Source: a virus (lineage: Duplodnaviria > Caudoviricetes). Taken from it: 64,000 nucleotides of DNA. The notes beneath the pieces are model-generated. The model made no database searches and had not been told where the DNA came from. It was given only the letters and a program-made list of their open reading frames with translations. The stretch is from the IMG/VR virus record IMGVR_UViG_3300014204_000123, positions 32,001 to 96,000 of that record; one strand, given 5' to 3'. Made by a program: the position numbers and the translations under genes. Each line of letters begins with the position of its first letter. Position 1 is the stretch's first letter. Positions 5,924 through 60,855 of the stretch are shown here, piece by piece.

Positions 5924-6405
5924 CCCATTTGTCGAGGCTTGGGGCTCTGCTAGAGGATGATACAGGATTCGGGCGGAAGTGGGGCGTTGAGGGAGGGGAC
6001 ATTCAGCCCTATCTGGATGCGCTGAAAAAGCTATTGGCTGCGAACTTCGATACAGACGTAACGGGGAAGTTTGAGGCGAAGGTGGGGTCGGTGTTCGACG
6101 ACTTCGTTATTTGGGATGTTGCATCTCAAAAGACGTTTCCGTTGGCCGGAGGAAAAGGCAAGCGCATACCTATGGTCCGAGTTAATATGGTTTTAGAGGT
6201 AATCAAGGAAGGAACTTCATTTGTGCCACAATGTTCGGCAAGTATGGACGTAGGGGTTATGAACGGGAAGCCAGATGGGGCCTGGACGAATCAGCATTTG
6301 AGTATTGGCAGCGACAAGGGTCTCGAATGGCCTCCTGCCAAGGTTGCTGATTTCGTTCGTTGGATTGAGCCATCCATCAAGAAACTCGCTGCCTCGTCGA
6401 AATAG
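5920..6405 (+). CDS. hypothetical, putative head-internal protein
   Basis: ATGA overlap; N-terminal LSRLGALLE/D. Confidence 0.6.
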   Translation: MTHLSRLGALLEDDTGFGRKWGVEGGDIQPYLDALKKLLAANFDTDVTGKFEAKVGSVFDDFVIWDVASQKTFPLAGGKGKRIPMVRVNMVLEVIKEGTSFVPQCSASMDVGVMNGKPDGAWTNQHLSIGSDKGLEWPPAKVADFVRWIEPSIKKLAASSK

Positions 6406-6425
6406 GTGATTTGCTATGGGGGATT

Positions 6426-6848
6426 ATGATGCGGATGCTATTGGTGATGCTGCTGTGCGCCGGTTGTGCGAGTACGGGGACTCCAGTTCTGACTTTGCCC
6501 AAGGTAGAGATTGTCGAGGTCCCGGCTCCCGCACCTATTCCAGAGAGCGAAGATTGGGTAGAGGCAGTGTACCAAGAGGACGGCTTCCCCAAGGGTGGGG
6601 TTTTGATGGGGGATGGGAAAGCACTGCGTTGCGGATGGTACAAGATTGAGTTCGACAGGTTTTCCGCTCTGTATCAGGCGGAAGCACAAATGCGGTCCGA
6701 CGAGCACGTTGCGGTAGTTGCATATCAGGCTTCGGTTTCGGAAAGCGATACATGGTTGACTAGGAATGAGTTTGTGATAGGCGGCGCCTTGGGCCTTGCC
6801 ATTGGGGTGGGCATTTCCATCCTTGTGGCGTTCGCTGCCGGGCAGTAA
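6426..6848 (+). CDS. unimolecular spanin candidate
   Basis: Signal peptide with lipobox LCAGC, Pro-rich linker, C-terminal TM FVIGGALGLAIGVGISILVAFAA. Confidence 0.55.
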   Translation: MMRMLLVMLLCAGCASTGTPVLTLPKVEIVEVPAPAPIPESEDWVEAVYQEDGFPKGGVLMGDGKALRCGWYKIEFDRFSALYQAEAQMRSDEHVAVVAYQASVSESDTWLTRNEFVIGGALGLAIGVGISILVAFAAGQ

Positions 6849-6871
6849 TTCTCACCCTATAAATTTCCCGC

Positions 6872-6900
6872 TTGACAATAATCTTGTGACCCCTTATGCT
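6872..6900 (+). promoter_or_regulatory. class A sigma70 promoter
   Basis: AAATTTCCCGC-TTGACA-17 bp-TATGCT. Confidence 0.8.
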
Positions 6901-6919
6901 TCAAGGCGTGGAGGGGACA

Positions 6920-8818
6920 ATGCCCAGAAACGCTGCATGGATTGAGGGAAGTGAGATTGTGGTTGACTCGCCGTATTCTGCGGATGCGGTTGTTGCGGCC
7001 CGTGCTATCCCCGGACGTTTCTGGGATGGAGCTAACAGGCGGACTCGCTTCCCAGGTTGGCGGCTTACTGAGGTTACGGCCTGGATCTCCAGATACTTCC
7101 CTGGCTTGGATGTTTCTGGGCTGAATGCCCCGATAGGGGATGCGATCAAGGTCGAGGGCCGCGGGGCGTTCTTTGCGGTGACAACGCCTTACGATGTTGA
7201 TTTTGTTTCGGCGGTGAAAAAGCTTCCCGATTGTTCCTGGCCGCAAGATCAAGAGATTTGGCTGGTTCCCAAGGACCGGGCACGGGATCTCTTGGGCATA
7301 TGCAAGCGGATATTCGGGAGTGAGCCTTCGGCGTTGCTTGCTGCCATAGCCGAGCACGAGGGGAATAGAGCGCTGGCGACTGCGGTATCCAGTGAGGACA
7401 AGATAATCCTTCCTGGCGGGGAGCTATTCCCGTTCCAAGTAACAGGAGTAAAGTTCTTAGAGTCAAAAGGTATGGGTCTTATATCGGACGACATGGGGCT
7501 GGGAAAATCTATACAAACAATAGCCTATATGTATAGAAACAAAGAAATATCACTTCCGGCTATTGTTGTTTGCCCTGCGTCGGTGAAGGTCAATTGGGTT
7601 CGGGAGATCACGAGGTGGAGTGGTCGGCAATTGATTGCAGTTGTTGCGGACGTGAAGAAATTGGAGTCTCAGATTGCCTCAGAGAAGCCGGATGTTTTGG
7701 TCTTGAATTATGAGACGCTTCCGAAGTTGGTAGACGCTACGGGTGCGGTTTCTCCTGTTCTTGTGCGGTGGGGCTTGAAGTGTATTGTTTTCGACGAAGC
7801 GCACACGTTGAAGAATGCGAAGAGCCAAAGGTCGAAGGCGGCCTTGGCACTAGTCAGGCATACGGGCGGTCGTGTGATAGAACTGACAGGGACTCCGCTA
7901 CTGAATCGGCCCGGTGAACTGTGGCACTTGCTGCATTTGCTTGACGGGGAAGCATGGGGCAACTACGGGCGGTTCCGATTCAGATACTGCGGTCCCGAGC
8001 AAAACCGTTACGGATGGACGTTCGACGGGGCTTCAAATACTCAGGAGCTTAGGGATCGATTGATCGGGCATTACATGGTTCGGCGCCTGAAAAAAGACGT
8101 GTTGAAGGAACTTCCACCGAAGCTGAGAAGCTATGTCCCGGTCCGACTGGACAAGGCGGGGATGAAGGAATGCCGGGATCTGTTTGGAACTTTTGCTGCT
8201 AGGCTTATGGCGGAAGATGGGAGCCCGTTGAAGCGTCATGCCGACACGTTGGCGGCGATGAACGAGCTTCGGCAAGCGGTGGGAATGCGAAAGGTTCCGG
8301 TCGTGGCCTCGTGGCTTGTAGAGGCGCTGGAAACGACGGGGAAGGTTCTCGTGTTCGCTTATCATCATGCGGTGACGGATGCGTTGATAGCGACGCTTGC
8401 TGAGTCTGGCGTTAGGGTCTCTAGGGTTGACGGTAGGGACGATCTGGCGACTAGGCAATCTGCAATTGACGGATTCCAGGCGGGCGACATCCAGGTTTTG
8501 GTCTGCGGGATCAAGACTGCGGGGGTGGGCCTTACATTGACTGCTACTGACCAAGTGGTTTTCATCGAGCGCGCTTGGCGTCCGGCGGATCATGAGCAGG
8601 CGGAAGACCGGGCATACAGGATCGGGCAAGACAAGTGCGTCAACGTCTGGTTCTTCGATGCCGAAGATACAATTGACGACGATATGAGGGATCTCCAGGA
8701 TTCCAAGCGAGGGGTTATCTCTGCGATAGTCGACGGCGGCGATGCTCCGAATGAGACGGAAGAGAGTGTGGCGATGCAAGTGGCTTTGCGGGTCATGAAA
8801 CGATATCAGGAGCGATAA
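6920..8818 (+). CDS. SNF2-family (SMARCAL1/HARP-like) helicase
   Basis: DDMGLGKS, VVCPAS, DEAH, LTGTP, GVGLTL, QAEDRAYRIGQ motifs; GGAGG RBS before ATG 6920. Confidence 0.92.
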   Translation: MPRNAAWIEGSEIVVDSPYSADAVVAARAIPGRFWDGANRRTRFPGWRLTEVTAWISRYFPGLDVSGLNAPIGDAIKVEGRGAFFAVTTPYDVDFVSAVKKLPDCSWPQDQEIWLVPKDRARDLLGICKRIFGSEPSALLAAIAEHEGNRALATAVSSEDKIILPGGELFPFQVTGVKFLESKGMGLISDDMGLGKSIQTIAYMYRNKEISLPAIVVCPASVKVNWVREITRWSGRQLIAVVADVKKLESQIASEKPDVLVLNYETLPKLVDATGAVSPVLVRWGLKCIVFDEAHTLKNAKSQRSKAALALVRHTGGRVIELTGTPLLNRPGELWHLLHLLDGEAWGNYGRFRFRYCGPEQNRYGWTFDGASNTQELRDRLIGHYMVRRLKKDVLKELPPKLRSYVPVRLDKAGMKECRDLFGTFAARLMAEDGSPLKRHADTLAAMNELRQAVGMRKVPVVASWLVEALETTGKVLVFAYHHAVTDALIATLAESGVRVSRVDGRDDLATRQSAIDGFQAGDIQVLVCGIKTAGVGLTLTATDQVVFIERAWRPADHEQAEDRAYRIGQDKCVNVWFFDAEDTIDDDMRDLQDSKRGVISAIVDGGDAPNETEESVAMQVALRVMKRYQER

Positions 8819-9258
8819 TGGAAGAAAAACTAGACATGGTTCCATGGTATAGGGCGATGGCGCTTGCGATTGAGAAGGGTTGGGAGATAAGGGTCCTGGA
8901 CCCGGAGATAGGGATAATGCGTTGGGTCCGCTGGGATGGACCGACTCATAGGTATGTCGTTATAGATTGGCCACATAATTTGACTGGCGTTGAGCTTCTG
9001 TCTGGGTCCTATTATGATGTCCGGCCGCCTAAAGGCACGGGCAGAAGGCTGAGCGAGTGTAGCGCTGGCAAGTGGTACTCGTCCATTCCGATATCGGACG
9101 GCCAGAACAGGCACGCCGGAAGGTGCACGATAACGGAGGGCGGGGATCTATCACTTCGTGATCGGCTGAGTATAAAAGCCATAACTGAGCCCTGCTGGTA
9201 TAGCACAAAACAAGAGGCTGAATCTGTGATGGACGCTCGTGACAGAGTAGGAGTGTAG
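8818..9258 (+). CDS. hypothetical, paralog family X copy 1
   Basis: AMALAIEKGW...GRRLSEC...W...ITEPCWY. Confidence 0.7.
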   Translation: MEEKLDMVPWYRAMALAIEKGWEIRVLDPEIGIMRWVRWDGPTHRYVVIDWPHNLTGVELLSGSYYDVRPPKGTGRRLSECSAGKWYSSIPISDGQNRHAGRCTITEGGDLSLRDRLSIKAITEPCWYSTKQEAESVMDARDRVGV

Positions 9259-9260
9259 CC

Positions 9261-9803
9261 GTGGCCAACGTCAATGTGGGCGATATCAGAATCAGGGTAG
9301 ACTACTCGGTGTCGGAAGGCATCCCGGTAGAGCATATCATATACTACACGGTGGTAAAGCTGACCAAGACCGGGGTTTGGGTTGTTATTGGAAGACTGAG
9401 CGAGCTGTATATATCGCAGATGACGGACGATATAGCGAAGCGCCGGGAGACTCTTCGGAGCTTCGGAGCGCGGTGGCTCAGTGTGGATACATCCGGCCGG
9501 ACCAAGTTCGTTTACAGGACACTGGAGGAGGCGAGAAGGGAATGTGCATTCCGCAAGGTTCGGGCGGCTCGTTACTCCTGGAATAGGTACGTGAACGCTA
9601 CTCACATTGCCAAGAACGCCATGGTCAAGGCTGGGATTGATACGCTGAACCCTCCTGGGATACATGACGGGGTTTCGCTGAGGATGGCGAGGTCGTTCGA
9701 GTTTATATCGAGGGACCCGGTGTTCATGGACTGGGAGTTCAAAGAACCGACTCCGCTGCGACTGGGGTCGTTTTCGGAGATTGAAGAGGAGGAAGTAATA
9801 TGA
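9261..9803 (+). CDS. hypothetical protein
   Basis: AGGAG RBS with GTG start; tightly packed operon. Confidence 0.6.
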   Translation: MANVNVGDIRIRVDYSVSEGIPVEHIIYYTVVKLTKTGVWVVIGRLSELYISQMTDDIAKRRETLRSFGARWLSVDTSGRTKFVYRTLEEARRECAFRKVRAARYSWNRYVNATHIAKNAMVKAGIDTLNPPGIHDGVSLRMARSFEFISRDPVFMDWEFKEPTPLRLGSFSEIEEEEVI

Positions 9804-10204: not shown

Positions 10205-12949
10205 GCGAATGGTATCCGATGGCAGAATTCCCGCACGATGGGAGCTTGGTTGTGCTGCTGAGTTCCGACGGCCGGCTGGACGTTGGGTTCTGGAAGGGCG
10301 ACAAATTTAGCACGTATCTTGGCCTGGGTTCCTATCTGGGTTGGAAGCCACTTGACGACCGAGGGAAGATGGTCGACAAGCCTGCCCCCAAACCCGAGTG
10401 CCGGACGTGCCCGCTGTCGACGCCACTCAATAGCCTTCGCTGTCTTTGTCACTCCGTGCGGTTGACAGTCGATGGCTCGTCAACGATGGATATCGACTGG
10501 TACTGCGAACTTCACCCAGGCTATCCCGAGTGGTCCGAGCATGAGTATCGGCGGCGGTTGGAGGGGCAGCCATGAGCACTGAAACGTGCCCCAAGTGCGG
10601 GGCCGGTGTCGCCAATCATGTGTAACGGAATATGCGGCAAGTGCGGTGGCGACAGGATGGCGGATAACGTGTGCGATTGCGACTATAAAGACGTGCTTGC
10701 GCAGCTTAGGACAATGGCCGAGCTGGCGAATGAAGCAATCTTGGAGAACATACGGCTGGCGGGCGAAAACGCCAGGATGGTCTCTGCGTGTGTCGAGTAC
10801 GCTCAGGACCTGGATGATCTGTGGATTAGGTTCAATAAGGTCAATGGTGAGCTTGCTTTGGTAGAGCAGGAGTATCAGCAGTTACTGGAGGGCAAGTCAT
10901 GAATGGGCTTCAAGTGATACACTATATAGGGTGGGTTTCAATATCTGAAGCCCCTATAGAGTTAGCGATGTCTAGGCTGGAAATGGATTTGGAAAACAAA
11001 GTGAGATTCCGAGTGGATAGATTAGGCGAGCCCCAGGGTTATATCGATTGGGCAAGGCGGTCGGTCCGCGTCAGGTATGAGGTACGCAGGTGGCGGCCCG
11101 ACCTGACAGACGAACAAATGGCGGAAGTCGGCCGTATTGCGTTGGCTATGCTCAATTTGATGCAAGGAGGGACGCCGTGAACGAACTTGAAGCGGCTTTG
11201 ACTGCGGCTGTTGGGGAATGGGCCAAGGGGAAGGGGTTGCCGGAACCGGAGTCGTGGGCGAAGGGCAATGGTTGGTTTATGTTTTGGTATGGTGGCGGCC
11301 TATCAGTTATGTATAGCTATGGCGGTTGGCGCGGGTTCGAGCGCGGTGAAACCGGGGCAACGTCGTTGATTGGATCGCTTCGTGGCGCTATCCATTGGTT
11401 GAAGGCCAGGGGGGTTGGAGGTGAGCAATGACAAATAGCACATGCCCCAAGTGCGGGGCCGACATAGTCAAGCGCTGGACTGGCAAGAGCAGCAAGCTTC
11501 CGAAGTGGGCCTATAGGTGCGGTAGCGAGTGGAACGGCCGTCAAATGGTGCATTCCAGGCCGTGTTTGGAGAAGCGTATTGGGCAACTGGAGGCCCGCAT
11601 TAGGCAACTGGAGGGGCAATCCTAGCCGTCCATCCGGGGGTGACTCGGTCGGCTTACTTGTCCGGGCCCCTCGGTTGGGTGGGTAGAATTGGGGCGTTGA
11701 CAAATGGAGGAAGCGATGTTTGGAAGAAAGCAAAAGATTGAAGCGGCTTGGGCTCCCACAAGGCAGTTTACGATAGCCCAGGAATGCTTCCCGCAAGGGT
11801 CGCAAGTTCGATGGTGCGGTTACACGATGTGGGTTCTGCGTTGGACTGCGGGGTGCAGGCTTGAGCGCGATTGGATGGACAAGTTGCTCTGTGGTGGCAA
11901 CGGCCCGAGTGTGCGTGGTGGAGAGTTGCTCTTGGCGTATTCGTGCGGTGGCCGCATGCGAAAAGCGCTAATCGAGGAGGCTGAAATGCCGGGTTTCCTG
12001 GCGCAGAACCCACCGGTGAATTGTAGCCATGTTTGAGCGGGTTGCGCTGGCGGAGATACTGGCTGAGTTGGTGGAGAGTATGAAGCTAACCTATACAAGG
12101 AAGAGCACTTGCAAGCGAAGCGATACGTCAATTCGACTCGGTTTGTGAGGGTCTTTGGGGGTACAATGTATGGCCATGGGAGGTGAAGCCGTGAACTGTC
12201 CAAGATGTGAAAGCAAACTGTACATGATAGGTTTGGTTGAGAAAACAAGGCCAAGCGGGCCGTGGTACCAGTGCGACGAGTGTGACTGGGAATCGGAGCC
12301 TGTCAGGGAGTTGGTCCTTGCCTCGCCAGCCTACCGCCTCGCCCAGCTTCTGGCACAGGGTGCCAAGCCGGGGTGGTATGGGCCGGATGGGGAGCCATGG
12401 TATTGCGTGAACGGGATGTGCTCTGGCCAAGAGTTCTTAATGAAAGGGCAAGAGTGTATCAGTAAAGGCCATGCCCGGCTTTGCGGGTTCGTGGAGGTGA
12501 AGGAATGAGTTGCCGGACGAGTACGGATTCATGCGTTGGCACCCTCATTGGGTTTATAGCAGGGATGATATTTGGTGCGCTTCTTTTAGCCGTGATTATT
12601 CGCGATTTCAGGAGAGATTCCGAAGTTGCGGAGATCGCTGCGTGCTATGAGAAGTGCGGGTCGGTTGACCTAGAGATTCGTGATGGCAAGTGTTGGTGCC
12701 GAAAGCCGATCGAGGTGCCAGATGGGCGGTAGCGACGTAGAGGTAGCTGATTGCATACGTGAGATCCAGTGCTACCACTTCGACAAGGGACTGGGGATGG
12801 TGACGTTCGAGAAGTTCTCGTTAGAGCTGGGTCCTCGCCGGGATACGGCAGAGGGGACCTGTCCTGTTTGCCGTAAGACCTATTGGCGGAAGCTCAAGTC
12901 GGGGCCTCTTTTGGACATCCTGAATTGGGAACCGCCAAGATTGAGATGA
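10201..12949 (+). other. cluster of about 9 small, mostly translationally coupled ORFs, several with CxxC zinc-ribbon motifs
   Basis: ORFs at 10201, 10606, 10899, 11177, 11428, 11704, ~12191, 12505, 12722, with ATGA/GTGA overlaps and GGAGG RBSs. Confidence 0.6.
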
Positions 12950-18776: not shown

Positions 18777-19445
18777 ATGGGTCGGAAGAAAGTTCCTCAA
18801 ATCAAGCCGTGTTTCCTGGATAGGCGTGCATGTAGTTCATGCGGCGGTGCCTGCTGCAAGCAGTATCCCGGCATTTCGTTGCCGGAGGATTTTCCAGACG
18901 TGCAATCGATTGCAGACGCTCTGTCTAGCGGGCGGTGGTGTATCGACTATGAGGGCGACGATCCGTTTCTTCGATGTGCTACTAAGGGCAGCGAGGGGAC
19001 GGCGGTGGAAGAGCTTTACGACGGCCATGAATGCACGTTCCACGGTGCCCGTGGTTGCGAACTAAAGCCCGACGATAGGCCAGCCGGATGCCGCTATATG
19101 GTTCCGATGATCGGGTCTTGCGCAGTGGTCGTCAAACCCGTCCATTCAGCGAATGCGTGGAGGTCGCGGGCAGGCGATCTATTTTCAGCGAAAAGCCTTG
19201 TTCGGTCTTCCGTTTTGGCTCTGCCTCGCGTGGATGCAGGCGCGGACGCTCGCGTGAGATCACTTTCACGAAGTGAAAGTAAGGAAGATAGAGATAAGGA
19301 TAGAGAAAAGAGGGGTGTGGGGGGGAAGGGGAAAGGGAAAGGGAAAGGAACCCAAAAAAGCGCGAAAACGCAGTCAAAAGCCACAGGAGCGGCGATAGAA
19401 AAGAGGGAAGCGAACGTGGTCTTTTTGAAACCCCGTCAGGAGTAA
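18777..19445 (+). CDS. CxxCxxxCC (YkgJ-like zinc/iron-chelating) protein with low-complexity tail
   Basis: CSSCGGACC...CTF...GC...RPAGCR. Confidence 0.7.
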   Translation: MGRKKVPQIKPCFLDRRACSSCGGACCKQYPGISLPEDFPDVQSIADALSSGRWCIDYEGDDPFLRCATKGSEGTAVEELYDGHECTFHGARGCELKPDDRPAGCRYMVPMIGSCAVVVKPVHSANAWRSRAGDLFSAKSLVRSSVLALPRVDAGADARVRSLSRSESKEDRDKDREKRGVGGKGKGKGKGTQKSAKTQSKATGAAIEKREANVVFLKPRQE

Positions 19446-20642: not shown

Positions 20643-21503
20643 GTGATCATGAGCGATACCATGGGATTTGAGGGCGCCAAGGAACTGAGCAGGGAAGAGC
20701 GGACCGAGGCTGTTCTTTTGGGCCTCTTGAGCGAGCGCTACTGTCTTCCTGGGTTCGCTTTTGTTCCACATTTCCAGGACATAGGTAACGGTGTAGGCCA
20801 TACCGGAGGCGCCATAGACGGCTTCGCGTTTAGCCTTGGTGAAGCGGATCATCGGGTCAGCTTTGAGGTCAAGGTTAGCCGTGGGGACTTCTTTCAGGAG
20901 CTGAAACATCCCGAGAAGCGGGCGTGGTCGATGGCGGTTTCCCATGAGTTCTATTTTGTCGTTCCCCATGGCCTTGTTCGGCCGGACGAGGTCCCCGAGC
21001 AGTGCGGGTTAATCGTGGCGAACAAGGGTGGGTTACGGCAGATTAAGGCGGCGTCATTCCGGGATATAGGTGTTACTCCGAAGTGGGTTATCCAGTCGCT
21101 TTTGCGAGGGATGCTGCGGTCGGACAGGCGTGACGCTAGCGGAAGAGACGACTTGAAGGTTTTCAAGTATGCTTTACGGGACGAGCCCCTAAGTGTCAAG
21201 GACTTAGAGGCCATGATGCACGAGCACTCTAGCAAGTTCTACGATCGCAAAGCAGAAGATGCGATTCGTGAGGCGACGATCAAAGCCGAGAAGGCTGCCA
21301 GATTAGAGCTGGATTCATTCAGGATCGCCTTGTCCGAGGCCTGCGGGGAGCAGATCTGGCGTGCCAGTCAAGTGAAGCGAATCATAGGTGACTTGAAGCG
21401 AGGGGTTCCAGTCGGTGTTATTCCCTTGCTCGAAGAGGTATCCAGGTTGAGCGGCCGTGCGTCTTTGGCGTTGAGGCAGCTACGGGAGGGAGAGAATGAG
21501 TGA
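20643..21503 (+). CDS. MmcB-like PD-(D/E)XK nuclease-fold protein
   Basis: IDG...FEVKVSRGDFFQEL..PEK...EFYFVVP...EVPEQCGLI. Confidence 0.75.
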   Translation: MIMSDTMGFEGAKELSREERTEAVLLGLLSERYCLPGFAFVPHFQDIGNGVGHTGGAIDGFAFSLGEADHRVSFEVKVSRGDFFQELKHPEKRAWSMAVSHEFYFVVPHGLVRPDEVPEQCGLIVANKGGLRQIKAASFRDIGVTPKWVIQSLLRGMLRSDRRDASGRDDLKVFKYALRDEPLSVKDLEAMMHEHSSKFYDRKAEDAIREATIKAEKAARLELDSFRIALSEACGEQIWRASQVKRIIGDLKRGVPVGVIPLLEEVSRLSGRASLALRQLREGENE

Positions 21504-22647
21504 CAAGCAACCACATCCAGACGAGTCAGACTGGGAAATTATTACCAGTTCGCCTTCTAGGTCTATATGCGAGCATGGCTATCCAGCAGGGGAGTTTTTA
21601 GCCTTCGATCCTACTGGTGCATATCGCCTTAGCAAAGTGTTTGATTTCCTTGATAAGCTTAACGCCCAAATGACTGACTTGTTTAGTAAATACCAACCAT
21701 TTCTTGAATGCCAACCGCTTCTTGACAGAATGGAAAGTCTAGTGTCTAAGTGTGAGTCTAACGACAAGGGTTTAGTTTCGAGCGTTTCCGAGATAGATAG
21801 GCTTACCGGCTGGCTGAGGTGCTATGTGGACCCAGCGTTGTGCGAGGGCGAAGCTCCGAGGGCGATGGTTGGTTCTCTCAATTCCAATACTTCCTGGAAG
21901 GGTCACGATACCAGACATCCAGAGAATTCCAAATGCAAGGTCCTGGGATGTTGTCCGGTGGAGGCTTCCGATGAGTGAAGTGTTGGTTGTTTGCGATCAG
22001 TCGGATAGGTGCAAGTGTGAAGGCAGGACTGACTGCATTTGGATGCACCCTCATTCTCCGGTTGTCGACGGTGTAGAGCATCGGTGGAAGCACGAGCAAC
22101 CGATTCTGTGTGACTGCCGGACTTCGTCGTTCTGCCGTAGAGCGGATTCTGTTCTTGCGAAGTGTGTTCCTTCGCCTGTAGGGGGAAAGCAATGATCCTA
22201 ACGAGCAGCGGTAGAATGGAGAGCGAAGGCCACGATCCCATTGCAGCAGAGAATCTGCGGAGCAAGGGCCTTCTGGCGTCGGTGAACCTGATTCTCAATC
22301 CGCACGACCTAGTGCTGGTATTGGTGCGGGAGGGGAACGCCTGGGTTCCCAGGATTGAGGCAATTCACAGAGTCGATCCAGAGGTCCCTCAGATTGACAT
22401 TGGCCTGGACCTTACGAAGCGAACGGGGATGCCTTACCGCCTAGCGCGGGCTGGGGACAAGATCCAGTGGGGTCTTGTAGGTGACGATGGGAAGATCCCG
22501 ATCCCGGCTGGGTATGTTATTCTGGATACGGTGAAGATAGAGGGCGAGCGCTTTGCCGTGTATGGTCATCCATCGGACAAATCGGCCAAGACCTATGATG
22601 TTCCAGAGACGGATATTCCGTTGGTGATGATGGTAAAGGTTCAGTGA
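21496..22647 (+). other. three hypothetical ORFs (21496, 21971, 22192)
   Basis: Overlapping start/stop codons, RBS-like sequences. Confidence 0.55.
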
Positions 22648-23054
22648 TGCCGATCAAGCCAGAGAACAAGGGGAAGTACCCAAAGAACTGGAAAGGGGTC
22701 AGGGAATCGATCCTGGAAAGGGCTCGGAACGAATGTGAGTTTTGCAGGCTTAGGAACGGGGAAATGGTTCTTCGTGGGTCTCGCGGGGATTGCAAGGTTT
22801 ATGCTAGGGTAGGGCCGTGGGATGACTTCGTAAGGATGGCAGAGACTGGGGAAATTCTCGTCTGGAGTGAGGAACATTGCGAGTGGCAGGACCGGCCTGT
22901 TAAGGTGGTTTTGACTATTGCCCACTTGGACCACGATCCTGGCAACAACTCACCTCAGAATCTTCGTGCTCTTTGCCAGCGGTGCCACAACAGTTGGGAT
23001 GCTGAGCACAGAGCGGAGACCAGAAAGAAGGGGAAGGCGCATGAGAACGGTTAA
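22644..23054 (+). CDS. HNH endonuclease-like protein
   Basis: CEFC...LTIAHLDHDPGNNSPQNLRALCQRCHN. Confidence 0.85.
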   Translation: MMPIKPENKGKYPKNWKGVRESILERARNECEFCRLRNGEMVLRGSRGDCKVYARVGPWDDFVRMAETGEILVWSEEHCEWQDRPVKVVLTIAHLDHDPGNNSPQNLRALCQRCHNSWDAEHRAETRKKGKAHENG

Positions 23055-23964
23055 TCGGTGGTGGCTGAGAAGCGTTGGTCCTGATAGTGACGGGGAGCCA
23101 GAAGGGAAGTTGGTCTATGCGTGCCTTCTGTGTGATATGGAGTGGTCATTCGAGCGAATCAACGACCAGGAAGAGACGGTGGAATTGATTCCTTGTGGGA
23201 ATTTAGAGATCACACATGCCGACAAGCATGGACGGCCCTCAATGAGGGTGACTTCATGGTTCCGAGATGGGGCGCCATTTAATTGTACGGTATGTGATAG
23301 ATGCGCGAACGTGCATAGAGCGATAAGAGCCGGGAGCATTTTCCGTCCACAGTATTTGTGGAGCGAACGCCCTACGGGTCCAGACAGTGAGGTGGAATTC
23401 GGATAGTGGCAATAGGATACTGGTATAGGGAGATAATATGAGCACTGAACCCAACGAGTACAAAGTATGCAGAGTAGAAGGCCACGAAATAGAAATAGGC
23501 CAGATAACAGTAGGCTATGGCCCATACGTGATTCTTCCAGAGGACAAGGTGGGCTTCCATGCTCAGGTAGAGCTGGCTCTTGGTCCTGGCCTCAAAGTCA
23601 TTGTCGAGGACTGCGATTCAGACGAGTGCGCGACCAGAGCTATGGCTGTTGCTCGTTTGCTTAGGAACCTCATGCAAGAGAGGGCGCCCTTATGCCTGTA
23701 GCGATTGGTGACCAGAAGCTCTACCTATGTGAGGACCGGCGTTCGCAGCGAGAATGGATGCGTGAGGCCTTGCTTGCAGGGAAGGTTTTGAGCGATACTC
23801 GTCTTTGGCTTGCTGGGGTTGACGAGGCGAGTCGGGAGATTCGGCTATTGAGGCGCAGCGGGATGAAGATCGCCACGACCAAGATAGAGATTATAGACGC
23901 TGAGGGAGAGGCGAGTATGGACTTGGCTTGGCGTGCAATCGATTGCACCAATGGAGGGGAGTGA
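23041..23964 (+). other. three hypothetical ORFs (23041, 23438, 23692)
   Basis: Packed ORFs; the first has CxxC pairs. Confidence 0.5.
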
Positions 23965-25103: not shown

Positions 25104-25132
25104 TTGACAAATTCAGAGCCATGCCTTATGTT
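25104..25132 (+). promoter_or_regulatory. class A sigma70 promoter
   Basis: TTTTCCTGC-TTGACA-17 bp-TATGTT. Confidence 0.8.
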
Positions 25133-25196
25133 GCATTCAACCGGAACGGATTCCGGCCTGAGAGCCAACGGGGGCCTTATTCCCGAAGATGACAAC

Positions 25197-26228
25197 ATGA
25201 GTCATGGTATAATGGAACTAGATACAATCGCTTGGTGGAAGAAAATGCCTTGGCACCACCTGGGAACGGAAATACCTGAGTTGTTAGGGGCAGAAGAAAT
25301 GATCAAGGCGGCGGGCCTTGATTGGAACGTAGAAAAATGGCCGATGGCAATGACCGAGCCTTTCGGGGCGGATCGTGCGGCGGCGGCCGCTATTGTTCGC
25401 GGGGAGCGAACCCCGATCATTCAGAAGGTTGATGACTTTGTTGCCACAGTGCGCCGGGTTGAAGGCGGCGTGGTTCAATTGGGCGTTGTTGGATCGGGAT
25501 ACAAGCCGATCCAGAATTCCGAGGCTTTCAACTTCCTTGACGGGCTTGGCGATCAAGTGAAGTTCGATGTTGCCGGTTCGATTTACAACGGTCAGAGAAT
25601 CTGTGCACTTGGCCGCGTCGGGGACTTCCGAATTCCGGGGACCGATGATCAAAACATTGAGTATCTGCTGTTGTGCAACGATCACGCTGGCAAGATGGCG
25701 CTTCGGTGCTTTTTCACTACCGTTCGCGTTGTGTGCGCAAACACAATGACTCTGGCCTTGAATCAGGGCAAGGGTGAGGGTATCACGATCCGCCACAACG
25801 GCGATGTCCGGGTGAAGATGGCACAAGCGCAGAAGGTTTTGATTGCCAGCCGGGACGTTTTTACCGACTGGACGGCCAAGGCGGAAGCTTTGGCGAAAAA
25901 GCAGTTGACGGACCGGGTCATGCAGGATGTTTGGAAGGCTCTTATTCCAGACCCAGCACCGAAGATCGAGGACGGCAAAGAGGTTGCTGTATCGACTTCC
26001 AGGGCTCAGGGCGTCCGTTCTGAATTGACGAGGTTGTTCGACGAAGGGACCGGGAACGATATGTCGGGCGTCAAGGGTTCTGCTTGGGCCGCATTGAATG
26101 CCGTAACCGAGTTCATTGACCACGGTCGCAACGTCAACGGCGATCAAAACAGTCGAGTTGCGTCTGCTTGGTTTGGGCAGGGCGCTTCGATGAAGCAGGA
26201 AGCCGCTAGGCTTCTCCTCGCTGCCTAG
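25197..26228 (+). CDS. DUF932-family protein
   Basis: PWHHLG, AAGLDWNV, YKPIQN, TTVRVVCANT, IRHNG, GSAWAALNAVTEFIDH. Confidence 0.88.
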   Translation: MSHGIMELDTIAWWKKMPWHHLGTEIPELLGAEEMIKAAGLDWNVEKWPMAMTEPFGADRAAAAAIVRGERTPIIQKVDDFVATVRRVEGGVVQLGVVGSGYKPIQNSEAFNFLDGLGDQVKFDVAGSIYNGQRICALGRVGDFRIPGTDDQNIEYLLLCNDHAGKMALRCFFTTVRVVCANTMTLALNQGKGEGITIRHNGDVRVKMAQAQKVLIASRDVFTDWTAKAEALAKKQLTDRVMQDVWKALIPDPAPKIEDGKEVAVSTSRAQGVRSELTRLFDEGTGNDMSGVKGSAWAALNAVTEFIDHGRNVNGDQNSRVASAWFGQGASMKQEAARLLLAA

Positions 26229-36054: not shown

Positions 36055-37413
36055 GTGCCTAACAGTGGGGACTTCAAAGCACTAAGCCTTCGGTTGCTGT
36101 CTGCGGTGATCTCCGGTGGCAACCGGACGGCCAAGCGGTTGATGCGGCGTGGGGTCTCGGGGCTGTACTTCCCGGACGAGCTGGGGGATGTCTGGAAGTT
36201 TCTCCAGAAGACTCTGGACGAGGAAGGTAGGGTCCCGGAAGCGGACGAGGTGGAGGATCGGTTTAGTGTCCGGCTGGCGAGGGATGTAAACTCGTTTGAC
36301 GCCGATTCAGTGGCCGATTTGATCTCCGCTGGCCTTGCCACTACCCTTTTTGACGAGGGGATGAAAGGCTCAAAGGAGGCCTGCAAAAAGGGCGATTTGG
36401 ACTCTGCGTTATCGCTGGCTGAGGCCCAGATTCGCAGGGCCAGGAACTTGCACTATGGCGGGATCTCTGCATCTCACCTATACGGGCAGGTTGGCGAAGT
36501 GGAGATGTTGTACGAGCGTGCGAAGCGAGGGGACATAGGTGTTCCTTTCCCGTGGCCGACGATGAACTCCTCTACTATGGGGATGTGGGAAAAGACGCTC
36601 ACGCTGTTCGTGGCGAGGCCTGGAGTGGGCAAGACCATGAGTTCTCTTGTGGTTGCCAACCATGTTAGGTCCAAGACCACCGTTGATATCCTGTACGTGT
36701 CTCCCGAGATGTTCAAATGGGAGATCGCAGAGAGAAACTTGGCGATGGAGGCCAAGGTCAACTATGGCCGGTTGATTCAGGGCCATTTGCGGACGGAAGA
36801 GGAAGAGCGGTTTCGAGCCAGGGTCAGGGAGCAAAAAGAGTGGAAGCCAGACCCGAGCGACACTACATGTAGTGGCTTGTTCTGGATTGTCGACAGGTCC
36901 GACATCATCGGGGCGAAGGACGATCTTCTGGCTCTGGAGACCTTGATTGAGGAATATAGGTCGAGGGCTGCGCTCCGGGGCCGAAAGCTGTTGCTTATCG
37001 TTGATGCTCTATACAAACTCGGCAGTGGTAGGGACCGGACCGAGCAAATGGTGGTTAACATCCTGTGGGCTGTCAGGATGGGGATACAGTACGATTGCCC
37101 GGTGTTGGCTACTACGCAATTCAACCGAGGTGCGGGCGCTGGGGGCATGGAGGCTTCTCTTGAAAACCTGGGTTTGACCGACGTTGCAGCGTGGGAAGCT
37201 CACCAGATTTTCGCTCTGTTCCGGGACAAGGATATGAAGGCTAACCGGCAGATGGGCTTCAAGCCGTTGAAGGTCCGGCGCTTGGCTTCTGATGGAACAA
37301 ATGAGTTTCGTGTTCATTGGGATTTTGATACTATGTCTTTTGGTGAGATCGCTACGGAAGGCAAATATGTCGACACTGACTATGCAACAACTAGCGACGA
37401 TGTAAAGTATTAG
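36055..37413 (+). CDS. DnaB-like replicative helicase
   Basis: ARPGVGKT, YVSPEM, LIVD, TQFNR, KVR. Confidence 0.88.
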   Translation: MPNSGDFKALSLRLLSAVISGGNRTAKRLMRRGVSGLYFPDELGDVWKFLQKTLDEEGRVPEADEVEDRFSVRLARDVNSFDADSVADLISAGLATTLFDEGMKGSKEACKKGDLDSALSLAEAQIRRARNLHYGGISASHLYGQVGEVEMLYERAKRGDIGVPFPWPTMNSSTMGMWEKTLTLFVARPGVGKTMSSLVVANHVRSKTTVDILYVSPEMFKWEIAERNLAMEAKVNYGRLIQGHLRTEEEERFRARVREQKEWKPDPSDTTCSGLFWIVDRSDIIGAKDDLLALETLIEEYRSRAALRGRKLLLIVDALYKLGSGRDRTEQMVVNILWAVRMGIQYDCPVLATTQFNRGAGAGGMEASLENLGLTDVAAWEAHQIFALFRDKDMKANRQMGFKPLKVRRLASDGTNEFRVHWDFDTMSFGEIATEGKYVDTDYATTSDDVKY

Positions 37414-41090: not shown

Positions 41091-42220
41091 TGCCTTTCGA
41101 TCTCGACTCCAGGATGGTTGCCATGGGCTTGGTCTTCATTGGACTACTGGCCGTGGGCCTTATTGGTGCTACGGTGATCGATGCCTTGTCCGTTATGGCC
41201 GACAGGTCGAAGAGGGGCAATAAATGGTACAAGTGATTCAGGATGTCCCATTATGGTTTAAGATTTTCTTTGTCATGATGGCGGCTAGTTGTGTCGGGAT
41301 TCTGTTTCTTTTGTTGCAGATTCAATTGGCCATATCAAGGCTGGCCGAAGGCATGATACTAATGAACAAAGAAAACAAAAATATGGCGAAGAGATTGGAC
41401 GCTCTATGTGACGCATATATGATTGAGGAAGACGGTACGGTGCCATGCGTGATTCGTGCCGGTGAATCAAATTTGGACGATGAACAAGAGGGACGACGAT
41501 GGAAGAGAAGGTAGTGAAGCCTAGAACGAGAACAGGCGGCGGGTCGATTGCTTGGGGCTATTTCCTGATTCAGGAGGATGGCAGCGAGGCATTCCACATG
41601 GTGGAGGGGGCGACCAGCACCGAGGACGTGAAGGATATGATACGGAAAGAGATGCTGCAATTAGGCGCTAACTCTGTATTCTATAAAAACGTGGTGAAGA
41701 TTTTTGCTATCAAGGCGGAAATCAAGCCTAACTTATCGTCTAAAGTGGTGGTGAAGCTATGAGTTCGAGCTGGGTTCCGAAGGTTGGGGAGATGGTCTAC
41801 GGCGTTTCCAGGGTAGAGTCTACTCGGCCACCTATGTATATGATCCATCATGGGGTGGTCCGGGAGTCCGACGCCAATGCTAGGATGGTGCACCTTGAAG
41901 ATGGCCTTCCCGGCGGCAAGCTGATTATCTTGCTGATGAACAAGACATTCAGGACCAGGACTGCCGCGCTTGCGGATATCGTTGCGATGTCGGAGCAGGC
42001 CTTGTCTCGCTACTGTGAGACCTCCATTGAGAAGCCTGGGAGCATTCCCGAGCATGTTATTGAAGCATGGAGGACCCAGGTCGAGATGGCCAAGGACGGG
42101 GCGGTGCCCATGATTGGTGGTCTTATTGACCCAGGAACTGGGAAGCCTGTTTCGTTCCGCCAGCGTAAAATTCGGACCAGGAAGATGAAGCGGTCCAACT
42201 TTCTGACTGTCTGCAATTGA
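41090..42220 (+). other. four hypothetical ORFs (41090 TM, 41224 TM, 41499, 41759)
   Basis: Packed ORFs. Confidence 0.5.
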
Positions 42221-49951: not shown

Positions 49952-50611
49952 ATGGCGAGGCAAGACCATAACGTTGTGGACATTGGTGACGCCGTTCTCC
50001 TTAAGCTGCCCTGCATTGACGTTGTGGTAGTCATGCTCCGAACGGGGAGCACTCCAGAGAAAGTCGCAGAATACATACAAGCAGATTGCAGGCTGCTAGA
50101 GTCAATGCCCAGATATGAGTTGGTATCTAGGCTTATCACCATGCAAGACAAGCTGGCGGATGCTGTAGGCCCTCCCCTGTCCGATATAGACCCGAACGAT
50201 GACAGTCGGGTGGATGAGCTGTCTTTGCTCGCTGACCTATATGAGATGCAGTACAAGCGTCTCTTGTGGATCGAGGCGATAGAACGAAAAGCAGACTATC
50301 CGATCAAAACCTTTCCGTTAGAGATCGGCGCTGCCAGAGCGATCTTGAAAGTTTCCGGGGAGCTTCGAGACCGGCGGCGTGCATCCGGGGCACTTACCAC
50401 AGTCCCGGACGACGGCAAAGAGAAACAGCTTAGGTTGCTGGAGTCGAAATACGGGAAGAGCGTTATGTCTGTTCTGGCCAGCCCCGCCCGCAGGCGTAAA
50501 CTCTTAGGTACGGTCGAGATGCTTCGAGCGGATGACCGGATCACGAAGACGGATGAGCTTGTCGAAGAGACATTGAGAGACCAGGAGGACGACGATGGCA
50601 ATGACGGGTAA
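49952..50611 (+). CDS. putative terminase small subunit
   Basis: Helical protein overlapping the TerL start; call rests on position only. Confidence 0.45.
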   Translation: MARQDHNVVDIGDAVLLKLPCIDVVVVMLRTGSTPEKVAEYIQADCRLLESMPRYELVSRLITMQDKLADAVGPPLSDIDPNDDSRVDELSLLADLYEMQYKRLLWIEAIERKADYPIKTFPLEIGAARAILKVSGELRDRRRASGALTTVPDDGKEKQLRLLESKYGKSVMSVLASPARRRKLLGTVEMLRADDRITKTDELVEETLRDQEDDDGNDG

Positions 50612-52589: not shown

Positions 52590-54290
52590 ATGGGTTTCGG
52601 AACCAAGGTCAGGGAGCGGGTAGCTAAGTACCTATCGAAGAACGAAACCTCCATCAAGTCGAAGGAAGAGGAGAGGGATGAACTCCGGTCTCTGTCGTCC
52701 TCTGGCATAGGTGATGTGGCGACCGACTATGATGTCTGGGGCTGGTACGAGAGTAAGACGTCGATAGAGAAGAATCTAACATCAAGATATATAGACTACG
52801 AGGATATGGATGATTATCCTGATCACTCAGCCGCCCTCGACACATGGGCCGATGAGAGTACACAGCCAGATCAAATGAAAAAGGTTCCTATATGGGTTGA
52901 GAGTACAAACCATTCAGTAATGGAGCGAGGGAACGAGCTATTAGATCACTTGAAGGTCGACGGGGATATGTGGGGCCTATCTCGGGGCATTGCGAAGTAC
53001 GGCAACCAGTTTGGGGAGCTGCTGATAGGTGATAACGGAGTGGAGGGAATCCGGTATTTGGATGCTCCTACCGTGAGGGTTGTTGCCAGGGCCGGGAAGG
53101 TTATAGGGTACGTCCAGGACCCAACTGGGAAATTCCAAATAAACGCTTCACAGTTTGAAAAATGTTTAGAGAGCAACACCTATCTCGTGGGAGATATGGC
53201 TTTATTCCATCCCTATGAGATGGTCCATTGGAAGTTGATGCTCAGGCGGCTGCGAGGCCTTTACGGTCATGGGATAGGTGAGCCTGTTCGGTGGTTGCAC
53301 AAGCGGATGATCATGCTGGAGGACTCTGCGGTTTTGTTCAAGATCACGCGTGCGCCTGTTCGTCTAGCGTATTATGTGTCATGCGGGGACATCCCGGCAG
53401 AGAAGCGCATGGCGTATGTCAAGCAGGTCAAGTCCATGTACGCCCGGAAGCCGTACAAGTCGTCCGATGGCAAGATGCAGTTCCCCTACAACCCGCTGAA
53501 CCCCATGGAAGAGTTCTGGTTTCCAGCCGGAAGCGGGGGTGGAGATACCAGGATAGAAACCGTTGGAGGTTCGGACTTCCAGTCCATGGAACTTTTGGAT
53601 TACTTCCAGAACAAATACCATATGGCGTTGAAGGTCCCGAGACTCCACATAGGCGGGAACGGTGAGGTGTCTGGGTCGTTTTTGGCGCAGACGAGTGTGA
53701 TATTCGCTCGGTCGATACTGAGGCAGCAGGGGGCGATATGCGACGGCTGGGATTATGTCGTTGGTGTTGACCTCATGGCCAGGAACATAGACCCGGAATC
53801 CGTGAGCTATGCTACGCGCATGACCATTCCTTCGTCGATTTTCGAGTTGGCGAGGATGGAGGTGTGGAACGCCAGAGCGGATCTCATGAGTCGAATTGGC
53901 GAATACATGCCCACGACGTGGATGCTCTTGAACATCATAGGTCTCAGCGAAGAGGAATCGGCTCAGATCATCGCCTTGAAGCAATATGAGCGGCGTGTTC
54001 TGTCGCTTTGGGATGCCAGGAATCTTGCGGACGGTGAGAAGATCCAGGCTGGCGCCGGTGGGGACGCCTCTAGTGAAGAGGAAGAGGTTTCCTCTGCGTT
54101 GAAGGCCAAGTGGGGTCAGCTTTTGGCCAACGAGGAAAAGCACAGCAAGTTCGGCCTAGCGGAAGAGCGTAGGGTTTTGAGCAAGGTCAACGACCTATTG
54201 TCTCAGGATCGTAAGCTTGCGAGCAGGATGGACGATATCGCAACCATGGTGCGCGACATGAAGCGAATCACATTGATGACGAGGAAGTAG
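52590..54290 (+). CDS. portal protein (T4 gp20-like)
   Basis: YEDMD, KYGNQF, LEDSAVLFKITRAPVR, EEFWFP, YFQNKY.MALKVP. Confidence 0.9.
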   Translation: MGFGTKVRERVAKYLSKNETSIKSKEEERDELRSLSSSGIGDVATDYDVWGWYESKTSIEKNLTSRYIDYEDMDDYPDHSAALDTWADESTQPDQMKKVPIWVESTNHSVMERGNELLDHLKVDGDMWGLSRGIAKYGNQFGELLIGDNGVEGIRYLDAPTVRVVARAGKVIGYVQDPTGKFQINASQFEKCLESNTYLVGDMALFHPYEMVHWKLMLRRLRGLYGHGIGEPVRWLHKRMIMLEDSAVLFKITRAPVRLAYYVSCGDIPAEKRMAYVKQVKSMYARKPYKSSDGKMQFPYNPLNPMEEFWFPAGSGGGDTRIETVGGSDFQSMELLDYFQNKYHMALKVPRLHIGGNGEVSGSFLAQTSVIFARSILRQQGAICDGWDYVVGVDLMARNIDPESVSYATRMTIPSSIFELARMEVWNARADLMSRIGEYMPTTWMLLNIIGLSEEESAQIIALKQYERRVLSLWDARNLADGEKIQAGAGGDASSEEEEVSSALKAKWGQLLANEEKHSKFGLAEERRVLSKVNDLLSQDRKLASRMDDIATMVRDMKRITLMTRK

Positions 54291-60117: not shown

Positions 60118-60855
60118 ATGTCCGCGTATCGTCCGGCTACGTCAGCCGAAGCTATAGATCAAGTCAAGGCCATGCTCGGGTATCCCATTGTCGGTGTAGA
60201 AATGGGGCCGGAGAACTTTGATGCAGCATATGGGGCAACGGAGCGATGGTACAGCGCCCGGAAGGGCCAGACCAAGATGTATTCGCTCACACTGGTCGAT
60301 GGGCAGCAGGCGTACACGATGCCTACCGATTGCGACGAGGTTGTAGACGCGTTCTTCCCGCCTGGGAAGTGGGACACCTATCAGGCTTCCGTGTTGGACT
60401 ACGGGGTGGAGCTTAGCGGTAATCCCGTGGATATCATGCGAGACAGGTCGGGGATGGGGCCGTACAGCAGGATCGTCCAGATCCTGGAGAACAATGAGAT
60501 TGCCAGGGACATATTTGCGAACACCTATGAGTGGTTTTACGACACGACGGAGCGGGTGTTGACTATAGGCGGGAACCCCGCCGGTGGGTCTCTGGCGCTG
60601 ATTAAGTACAAAAGCATGACGGTGGATATAACGAAGTTTACGTCACTAGAGATCGATATTTTCATGCGATTCCTACTGGCGCAAATAAAGGTAATATACG
60701 GCAGAATACTGAGGAAGCATTCAGAGATTCCCGGAGCTTCCGGTCCGAAGACAACGGACGGAGCGGAGCTTGTATCCGAGGGAACTGCCGAGATGGAACG
60801 ACTAGACGAGAGGATTGGGATGATCAACGGGCCTTCAGGGTTCTTTGCTGGATAG
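60118..60855 (+). CDS. neck/head-tail adaptor (T4 gp13-like)
   Basis: KAMLGYPIVGVEM...GRILRK...IPG..G...DGAELVSEG..EMERL; synteny. Confidence 0.75.
   Translation: MSAYRPATSAEAIDQVKAMLGYPIVGVEMGPENFDAAYGATERWYSARKGQTKMYSLTLVDGQQAYTMPTDCDEVVDAFFPPGKWDTYQASVLDYGVELSGNPVDIMRDRSGMGPYSRIVQILENNEIARDIFANTYEWFYDTTERVLTIGGNPAGGSLALIKYKSMTVDITKFTSLEIDIFMRFLLAQIKVIYGRILRKHSEIPGASGPKTTDGAELVSEGTAEMERLDERIGMINGPSGFFAG

Follow-up and report, generated by a model that had tools for sequence, protein, structure and literature searches.

Islands of A-ending codons coincide with empty intein sites in the SNF2 helicase and portal genes of a phage

The SNF2 and portal islands

The virus record IMGVR_UViG_3300014204_000123 is a single contig of 133,713 bp with direct terminal repeats. 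We analyzed its bases 32001-96000, a stretch of 64,000 nucleotides (nt) referred to here as the window, in which two conserved genes, coding for a SNF2-family helicase and a T4-type portal protein, each contain an island of codons ending in A. The genes of this phage lie on the plus strand throughout, and its GC content is about 54%. The third codon positions are composed of G 0.37, T 0.25, C 0.25, and A 0.13 (the share of A-ending codons is called A3 below, with T3, G3, C3, and AT3 used accordingly), and in almost every codon family the A-ending codons are the least used, in the others they come close to it. Transfer RNA genes, which might have decoded them, were found neither in the window nor in the genome. 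T4-like markers are Portal_T4 in this phage and Gp23 and a prohead protease in a relative. The sister phage, IMGVR_UViG_3300014204_000124 (G001), is syntenic, measures 129.6 kb, and has about 99 proteins in common with this phage at 57-66% protein identity.

The features of the SNF2 gene are as follows:

6896-8818, plus strand: SNF2-family helicase gene, 640 amino acids, which holds the main island (Pfam PF00176 and PF00271 on the protein, and homologues)
7424-7552, plus strand: main A3 island, from the Q motif through motif I (GLGKS) plus the 15 following residues; 21/43 codons A-ending
7496-7501, plus strand: codons Gly-Leu of DDMG/LGKS, with the boundary 7498/7499 homologous to the insertion point of a mini-intein in the sister phage (protein alignment, codon view, and a PF14890 match above the family cut-off)

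A preliminary description of the window had counted 20 A-ending codons among the 39 of positions 7436-7552 and 3 among the next 39, and our count is exactly the same. In the frame of the open reading frame (ORF) 6896-8818, the third bases of this segment are A 20, G 8, T 6, and C 5, while A3 is 0.15 for the whole SNF2 gene and 0.13 genome-wide. To judge significance, the chance of an A-ending codon was modelled for each amino acid, and synonymous codons were shuffled. The 39-codon window has a z-score of 7.37, whereas the highest value reached when synonymous codons were shuffled 500 times genome-wide was 6.03. The maximal segment, 7424-7552, holds 21 A-ending codons of 43 where about 5.7 are expected; its score is 17.7, and no segment exceeded 13.1 under the null. 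Among 5000 shuffles within the SNF2 gene, none matched the observed score. The SNF2 island thus exceeds every shuffle. A codon-context model conditioned on the amino acid and the next base also leaves the islands unaccounted for, with the SNF2 island still at z 7.3. Near-identical contigs from two other samples, SRR6484787 and SRR18595299, show 3 single-nucleotide polymorphisms in 18.8 kb and 0 in the SNF2 island. As the island sequence is common to two independent assemblies, it is not an assembly artefact.

The shift in the SNF2 island is specific to A and synonymous. T3 is 14% compared with a background of 25%, C3 falls to 7/43 where about 10.6 are expected, the non-A third bases retain their resident proportions, and A replaces G, T, and C roughly by their frequency. 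Compared with the aligned codons of the sister phage, the A content of codon positions 1 and 2 is equal, and A3 is 0.44 against 0.18. For the SNF2 island, positions 1 and 2 differ by a net −1 in A, and the protein motif is intact, as had been described. A deaminase-type signature is ruled out because T and C as well as G are replaced by A. Low-GC foreign DNA is disfavoured at SNF2 by T3, by the NNY codons, and by the unchanged positions 1 and 2.

Apart from the near-identical assemblies, the closest SNF2 proteins are 61%, 57%, 52%, and 49% identical to this one, and their genes have 4, 9, 5, and 2 A-ending codons per 38-39 island columns, compared with 20 here. Since the cluster is missing in all four relatives, the SNF2 island is derived in this lineage. 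The island protein is 60-67% identical to all family members, as expected of a conserved motif. At synonymous sites, the island columns match background identity or fall below it in every pair (minimum 0.15 vs 0.47). Around the insertion point, the excess of synonymous changes is about 15. At the right edge of the island lies a one-codon indel common to the 49%-identical relatives and not to nearer ones. The island begins 176 codons into the gene, and the SNF2 core starts at about residue 177.

We searched for a donor of the SNF2 island in several ways. The island protein alone returned nothing closer than the SNF2 family's own members, exact DNA patterns had no match in IMG/VR or in a collection of 185,579 genomes, and a metagenome scan returned only the sister phage. 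Among GenBank phages there was no nucleotide match, and relatives were found only at ≤35% identity.

Two side observations concern the SNF2 gene. A sigma-70-like promoter (TTGACA, 17-nt spacer, TATGCT) lies at 6872-6900, immediately before the start codon. At 7500-7537, the codon choice of the island gives a slippery heptamer, G GGA AAA, which is not kept in relatives and is directly followed by an 8-bp inverted repeat (TCTATACA ... TGTATAGA, loop of 14) and then by a stop codon in the −1 frame. Heptamer and hairpin are probably a by-product of the codon choice, and their spacing is weak.

The portal gene carries the second island:

52590-54290, plus strand: T4-type portal gene, 566 amino acids (PF07230, E 2e-42)
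52776-52943, plus strand: portal A3 island, beginning at the start of the conserved portal domain, with T3 raised too; 18/56 codons A-ending, within-gene p 0.002
52782-52871, plus strand: tract whose synonymous codons agree between three lineages (this phage, its sister, and one other); 16/25 informative codons against 4.5 expected
52824-52829, plus strand: codons His79-Ser80, with the boundary 52826/52827 homologous to the insertion point of an HNH intein in the sister phage

The portal island begins 62 codons into the gene, and the Portal_T4 match starts at residue 66. For the comparison of portals, the intein was removed and four lineages of about 63% protein identity were aligned. DNA identity reaches 81-87% over a tract of about 120 nt across the insertion point, compared with 61-63% in the remaining gene. 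Pairwise third-base identity in the tract is 0.64-0.81 vs 0.43-0.54 in the remaining gene, and four-way third-base identity peaks there at 0.6 and is ≤0.4 elsewhere, equally conserved protein segments included. We also ranked three-way synonymous conservation in 16 orthologous genes (5359 codons; terminase, capsid, and recombinase included). The portal tract comes first with z 6.32, the strongest outlier in 19 kb, and is the sole A3-rich window among the ten strongest. As its third bases persist across amino-acid changes, the tract resembles shared ancestry rather than selection for rarity.

In each of the four lineages, the portal tract is rich in AT3 (52-62% vs 33-41%). In this phage, AT3 is 59% in the tract and 35% in the gene, and A and T each contribute to the rise. 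The proposal that the bias is toward A rather than toward A+T hence holds at SNF2 (T3 6/43, NNY codons 6 C to 2 T) but not at the portal, where T3 rises too. Two more distant portals, one of them intein-bearing, use ordinary GC-rich codons in the tract columns. The two sites behave oppositely, in that the portal flanks are unusually alike among lineages while the empty SNF2 allele is strongly diverged at synonymous sites.

In pairwise comparison with the sister phage, the highest synonymous conservation belongs to the Walker A loop of a DnaB-like helicase (36601-36690, z 3.85), which, unlike the portal tract, uses common G/C-ending codons.

A scan of 6800-8900 for sigma-70-type promoters and terminators gave nothing within the SNF2 island, the RNA fold of 7400-7580 is ordinary (z −0.94), and Rfam at a permissive threshold gave no match in 6000-9500. 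RNAalifold on the portal tract returned a positive covariation term, so that a structure is unsupported. In both islands, the alternative frames are all stop-rich and no overlapping ORF is conserved, and neither contains a start codon, in or out of frame, with a properly spaced ribosome-binding site.

Inteins of the sister phage

In the sister phage, the SNF2 gene (L004:10001-12463) is interrupted by a mini-intein of 167 amino acids between DEMG and GKT of motif I. It has Cys1, a TPDH block, a terminal His-Asn, and Cys at +1, where intein-free SNF2 alleles have Leu. No endonuclease domain was found in this mini-intein.

The sister portal ORF (G001:C1:100075-102837) codes for 920 amino acids, compared with 566 here, and contains an intein of 356 amino acids between DDYPDF and SAALD, with Ser at +1. 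An HNH_3 domain in this intein scores 49.7 bits against a cut-off of 24.8 bits, which predicts a nuclease function. The same site, 52826/52827, is intein-occupied in four more distant portals too. Between lineages, the portal intein has diverged about as much as its extein (49% vs 52%), and it is therefore an old resident. As the two closest lineages differ in its presence, precise gains or losses by recombination are required. A second portal intein site corresponds to window position 53004, between residues 138 and 139 (KYG/NQFGELL), and holds LAGLIDADG-type inteins in two distant relatives (29-34% identity).

A scan of both genomes with the Pfam intein domains found exactly two inteins in the sister phage and none in this phage. 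The insertion points of both map inside islands: 7498/7499 lies within 7424-7552, and 52826/52827 within 52776-52943, a patch that was already on the list of the preliminary description. The chance of both insertion points falling into patches listed beforehand is about 0.06 × 0.11 = 0.007 when calculated within the two genes. Measured against the islands that score ≥9 genome-wide, which make up 0.9% of codons, it is about 1e-4. A3 has a weak negative correlation with protein conservation (Spearman −0.11) and is slightly lower in conserved segments. Hence, a preference for conserved segments shared by inteins and islands gives by itself no overlap.

A3 clustering elsewhere in the genome

Ten A3 segments scoring ≥8 were observed genome-wide, compared with 1.35 expected, and T3, G3, and C3 are far less clustered than A3. 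Both ends of genes contribute to this background. A3 is 0.23 and 0.19 over the first ten codons of genes and 0.20 and 0.18 over the last ten, compared with 0.13 inside genes, and T3 is flat in both cases. The gene starts of this phage thus have an A-specific composition signature.

The patches outside the two islands are listed below:

23462-23524, plus strand: A3 patch at the 5' end of a small ORF in a 1.3-kb insertion missing from the sister phage; 13/21, a gene-start effect, possibly plus foreign DNA
41332-41508, plus strand: A3 patch at the 3' end of ORF 41224-41514, running into the next gene start at 41499; 21/59
25209-25349, plus strand: A3 patch where the DUF932 gene probably begins; 16/47, within-gene p 0.024
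19257-19400, plus strand: A3 patch in a Lys/Gly/Glu-rich low-complexity tail missing from the sister phage; 22/48
60643-60708, plus strand: neck/adaptor patch; 10/22, sister phage 4/22
50054-50113, plus strand: A3 patch specific to this lineage; 10/20

The preliminary description had grouped the SNF2 segment with a series of similar patches, and this series survives in part. The portal patch is significant, but several of the others are ordinary gene starts or ends. Given the genome-wide rise of A3 at gene ends, those at 23462-23524, 41332-41508, and 25209-25349 are therefore ordinary. The patch at 50054-50113 has a within-gene p of 0.035. At 10900-11030 and 21500-21770 we found only weak segments, which the gene-start effect explains in part. 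The neck patch, with 10/22 and a within-gene p of 0.27, is not significant.

The signature of A3 up with T3 flat is also that of A-rich, weakly structured translation-initiation regions at gene starts, and such regions account for the patches at 23455, 25200, and 41330 and for part of those at 10900 and 21500. The SNF2 and portal islands differ from them in lying deep in genes and in being far stronger (A3 0.49 vs 0.23). With starts 176 and 62 codons inside their genes, A-richness due to translation initiation is ruled out for both.

Two further significant internal islands lie beyond the window, at genome positions 118241-118348 (15/36) and 108294-108482 (27/63). The former is a conserved C-terminal segment of a 750-amino-acid protein of no assigned family, and the sister phage has 2/36 there. 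It is the third-strongest island, and no homologues of the protein were found among GenBank phages. The latter is a coiled-coil-like stretch of a protein of 1764 amino acids.

In the DUF932 region (25104-25200), translation probably begins some 31 codons after the first codon of the longest ORF, and the first residue of the sister orthologue aligns with Met32. The 1.3-kb insertion occupies 22648-23932, carries small A3-rich ORFs, and separates two genes whose orthologues adjoin in the sister phage. It includes an HNH-like ORF (22644-23054) with 21.3 bits for PF13392 and 20.7 bits for PF01844, both under the cut-off, and is possibly a free-standing homing-endonuclease cassette. An HNH ORF of the sister phage lies elsewhere (G001 22803-23273) and is A3-rich too.

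Origin and meaning of the islands

We tentatively favour the reading that the islands are footprints of homing sites, left by gene conversion at the portal and by recoding of an empty site at SNF2; this is a plausible account and not an assured one. Homing or gene conversion as the cause of the islands, and resistance as the outcome of the recoding, are what we infer from the coincidence with both intein sites. In this account, traffic of inteins and homing endonucleases among related phages would drive unusual evolution of the DNA at both empty sites.

Portal: The HNH-bearing intein persists in the sister lineage, and about 120 nt around its site would be homogenised by gene conversion among at least four lineages. 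Conversion may have proceeded by co-conversion during homing, by removal of the intein as intein-free patches spread, or by both. The tract would retain its own AT3-rich codon usage, which is foreign to all carriers.

SNF2: The intein of the sister phage has already lost its endonuclease, and the empty allele of this phage would have been recoded synonymously over about 129 nt. One option is selection for an allele that escapes an endonuclease adapted to the usual codons of the clade. The other option is conversion from an unsampled intein-free relative, and the right-edge indel common to the more distant relatives hints at this second option. The low synonymous identity and the mini-intein without endonuclease fit a decayed homing cycle.

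This account comes closest to short recombination tracts from a lower-GC relative, which had been proposed among the origins of the patches. Given the intein link, that proposal is the nearest to the evidence at the portal, where the tract is a shared one of lower GC3 with A3 and T3 both up. A lower-GC relative is not supported at SNF2, where T3 is flat and the non-A third bases are resident-like; at neither the protein nor the DNA level was a donor genome found that matches the patches.

Several points weigh against homing footprints. The choice of A as the replacement base is unaccounted for, as escape from a nuclease could take any synonymous base. A lower-GC donor would lift T3 as well, yet T3 is 6/43 in the SNF2 island, and searches by protein, in IMG/VR, and in the 185,579 genomes gave no donor sequence for it. 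At 129 nt, the SNF2 island exceeds a typical endonuclease recognition site. The inteins of the sister phage show native codon usage (A3 14-17%), and the AT-rich flanks were therefore not simply co-imported from an AT-rich source. The intein-bearing portal of a GC-rich lineage has no AT-rich flanks (0/56 A3 in the same columns), which also weakens the idea that the flanks are adapted to aid intein splicing. No A3 island is present in this phage at the second portal intein site (53004), and the lineage-specific islands at 118241-118348 and 108294-108482 have no known intein link. The association of islands and inteins rests on two sites only. Finally, the portal tract could have been kept by a constraint at the nucleotide level that made it a good endonuclease target.

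Co-conversion of flanks in homing is established for introns, inteins, and free-standing endonuclease genes, with T-even phage introns, SegG, and MobE as examples. The portal is like these systems in having a tract of about 100-150 nt across the insertion point with a history unlike that of the remaining gene, and this tract is common to intein-bearing and intein-free alleles. It is unlike them in that three of the four carriers of the tract are intein-free, and in that the codon usage of the tract is alien to its carriers while the intein looks native. The SNF2 site has no shared tract at all. The T4 gene 60 insert, which blocks MobA, makes a phage gene resistant to a competitor's homing endonuclease. 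To our knowledge, natural alleles with such resistance differ by an insertion or by at most a few substitutions, and none shows a directional one-base recoding of 129 nt. SNF2 resembles such alleles in that the protein is kept and the nucleotides around the homing site are changed. It differs from them in the length and one-base direction of the recoding, in that resistance is putative, and in that the sole intein at the site has no endonuclease.

Flank co-conversion and invasion-resistant alleles are thus known in principle. Both have been described for haloarchaeal MCM inteins (PMC10643990). A phage homing endonuclease can be a weapon between co-infecting phages, the PhiKZ gp178 escaper is a target-site variant resistant to a competitor's homing endonuclease, and 17 silent mutations were engineered near a phage homing-endonuclease target to block recognition with the protein sequence kept (PMC11620839).

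A bolder form of the homing account, which we consider speculative and unlikely to hold, is that phages protect the empty homing sites of essential genes: dense synonymous recoding in one direction, to the rarest codons of their clade, would immunise these sites. The rarest codons would put the site farthest from anything that a clade-adapted endonuclease recognises, and the same arms race would homogenise the flanks wherever the endonuclease stays active.

Apart from homing, the explanation that survives best is selection at the level of messenger RNA or translation, although we regard it as rather doubtful. Clusters of rare codons, or A-rich stretches with weak structure, would modulate translation at the start of a conserved domain; slowing may let the N-terminal part fold first, and inteins would merely prefer the same first conserved motif. 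Rare-codon clusters at conserved positions have been proposed to tune co-translational folding. In line with this, the shift is on the sense strand and synonymous only, A3 up with T3 flat is the signature of the gene starts of this phage, and both islands use the rarest synonymous codons from the start of a conserved domain (about residue 177 in SNF2, residue 66 for Portal_T4). The portal cluster is also kept in position and codons across four lineages, which is the usual criterion for functional rare-codon clusters. However, the SNF2 cluster is missing from all four relatives, rare codons other than those ending in A are not enriched inside the islands, and the scans gave no promoter, RNA structure, or Rfam family and no internal start that follows a usable Shine-Dalgarno sequence. 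The portal keeps identical codons, beyond what selection for rarity needs, and the persistence of its third bases across amino-acid changes looks like shared ancestry. Even when a shared preference for conserved motifs is allowed for, the exact match to both intein sites would be expected by chance in only about 1 of 50 cases.

It is decidedly unlikely, in our judgement, that the islands have no specific cause, being the extreme tail of the patchiness of a mosaic genome with a chance match to the inteins. Third bases are indeed clustered more than expected in these phages (all four of them about two-fold in the sister phage; A, T, and G here), gene ends account for many of the small patches, and the association is built on two intein sites. 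Against this, the SNF2 island lies beyond every shuffle by a wide margin, and the clustering excess is A-specific here. For the joint coincidence, p lies in the range from 1e-4 to 7e-3, and in synonymous conservation the portal tract stands out independently.

A local strand-specific mutational hotspot, one of the origins considered in the preliminary description, appears improbable in a still higher degree. Repeated nicking with error-prone patch synthesis favouring deoxyadenosine monophosphate, or bypass of abasic sites, would add A on one strand, and selection on the protein would act as the filter, so that only synonymous changes survive in the conserved motif. The replacement of G, T, and C by A about by frequency is nearer to an "insert A" rule than to a transition bias, the patch has sharp edges and a length of about 100 nt, and a homing nuclease, of the HNH type or another, could act at its position. 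Yet no hotspot mechanism is at hand, and a very high and very local error rate would be needed over many generations. Codon positions 1 and 2 have no A excess over the sister phage, although selection could mask one, the portal tract is unusually conserved rather than hypermutated, and three assemblies have 0 polymorphisms in the SNF2 island.

Scars of escape from type III/VI clustered regularly interspaced short palindromic repeats (CRISPR) or similar RNA-guided defences, with A chosen as the non-wobbling base, had also been proposed; they find no support here and seem very unlikely. Dense synonymous recoding on the sense strand of an essential conserved motif would suit such escape, and because RNA-guided defences tolerate single mismatches, many changes would be needed. 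However, C is as wobble-proof as A and C3 is depleted, the 129 nt of continuous recoding equal three to four protospacers and would require several adjacent spacers, and the match with the intein sites is left unaccounted for. Two 24-mers from the island had 0 exact matches in the 185,579 prokaryote genomes, which is a weak test, as the host is not identified and only a minority of spacer offsets is covered.

If the link to homing holds, anomalies of synonymous codons in intein-free genes could map homing sites and past conflicts with mobile elements in uncultured phages. The two sites would then represent two phases of the homing cycle. The portal would be the active one, with homogenised flanks and an intact HNH domain, and SNF2 the burnt-out one, where the mini-intein is decayed and the target has diverged or been recoded. 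The SNF2 allele would parallel, in nature, the alleles engineered with silent mutations to block homing endonucleases, and the preference for A may bear on either nuclease recognition or local repair. If immunisation by recoding should prove true, islands at the codon level would be a record of past or present conflict between phages and intein endonucleases, even in genomes that are free of inteins.

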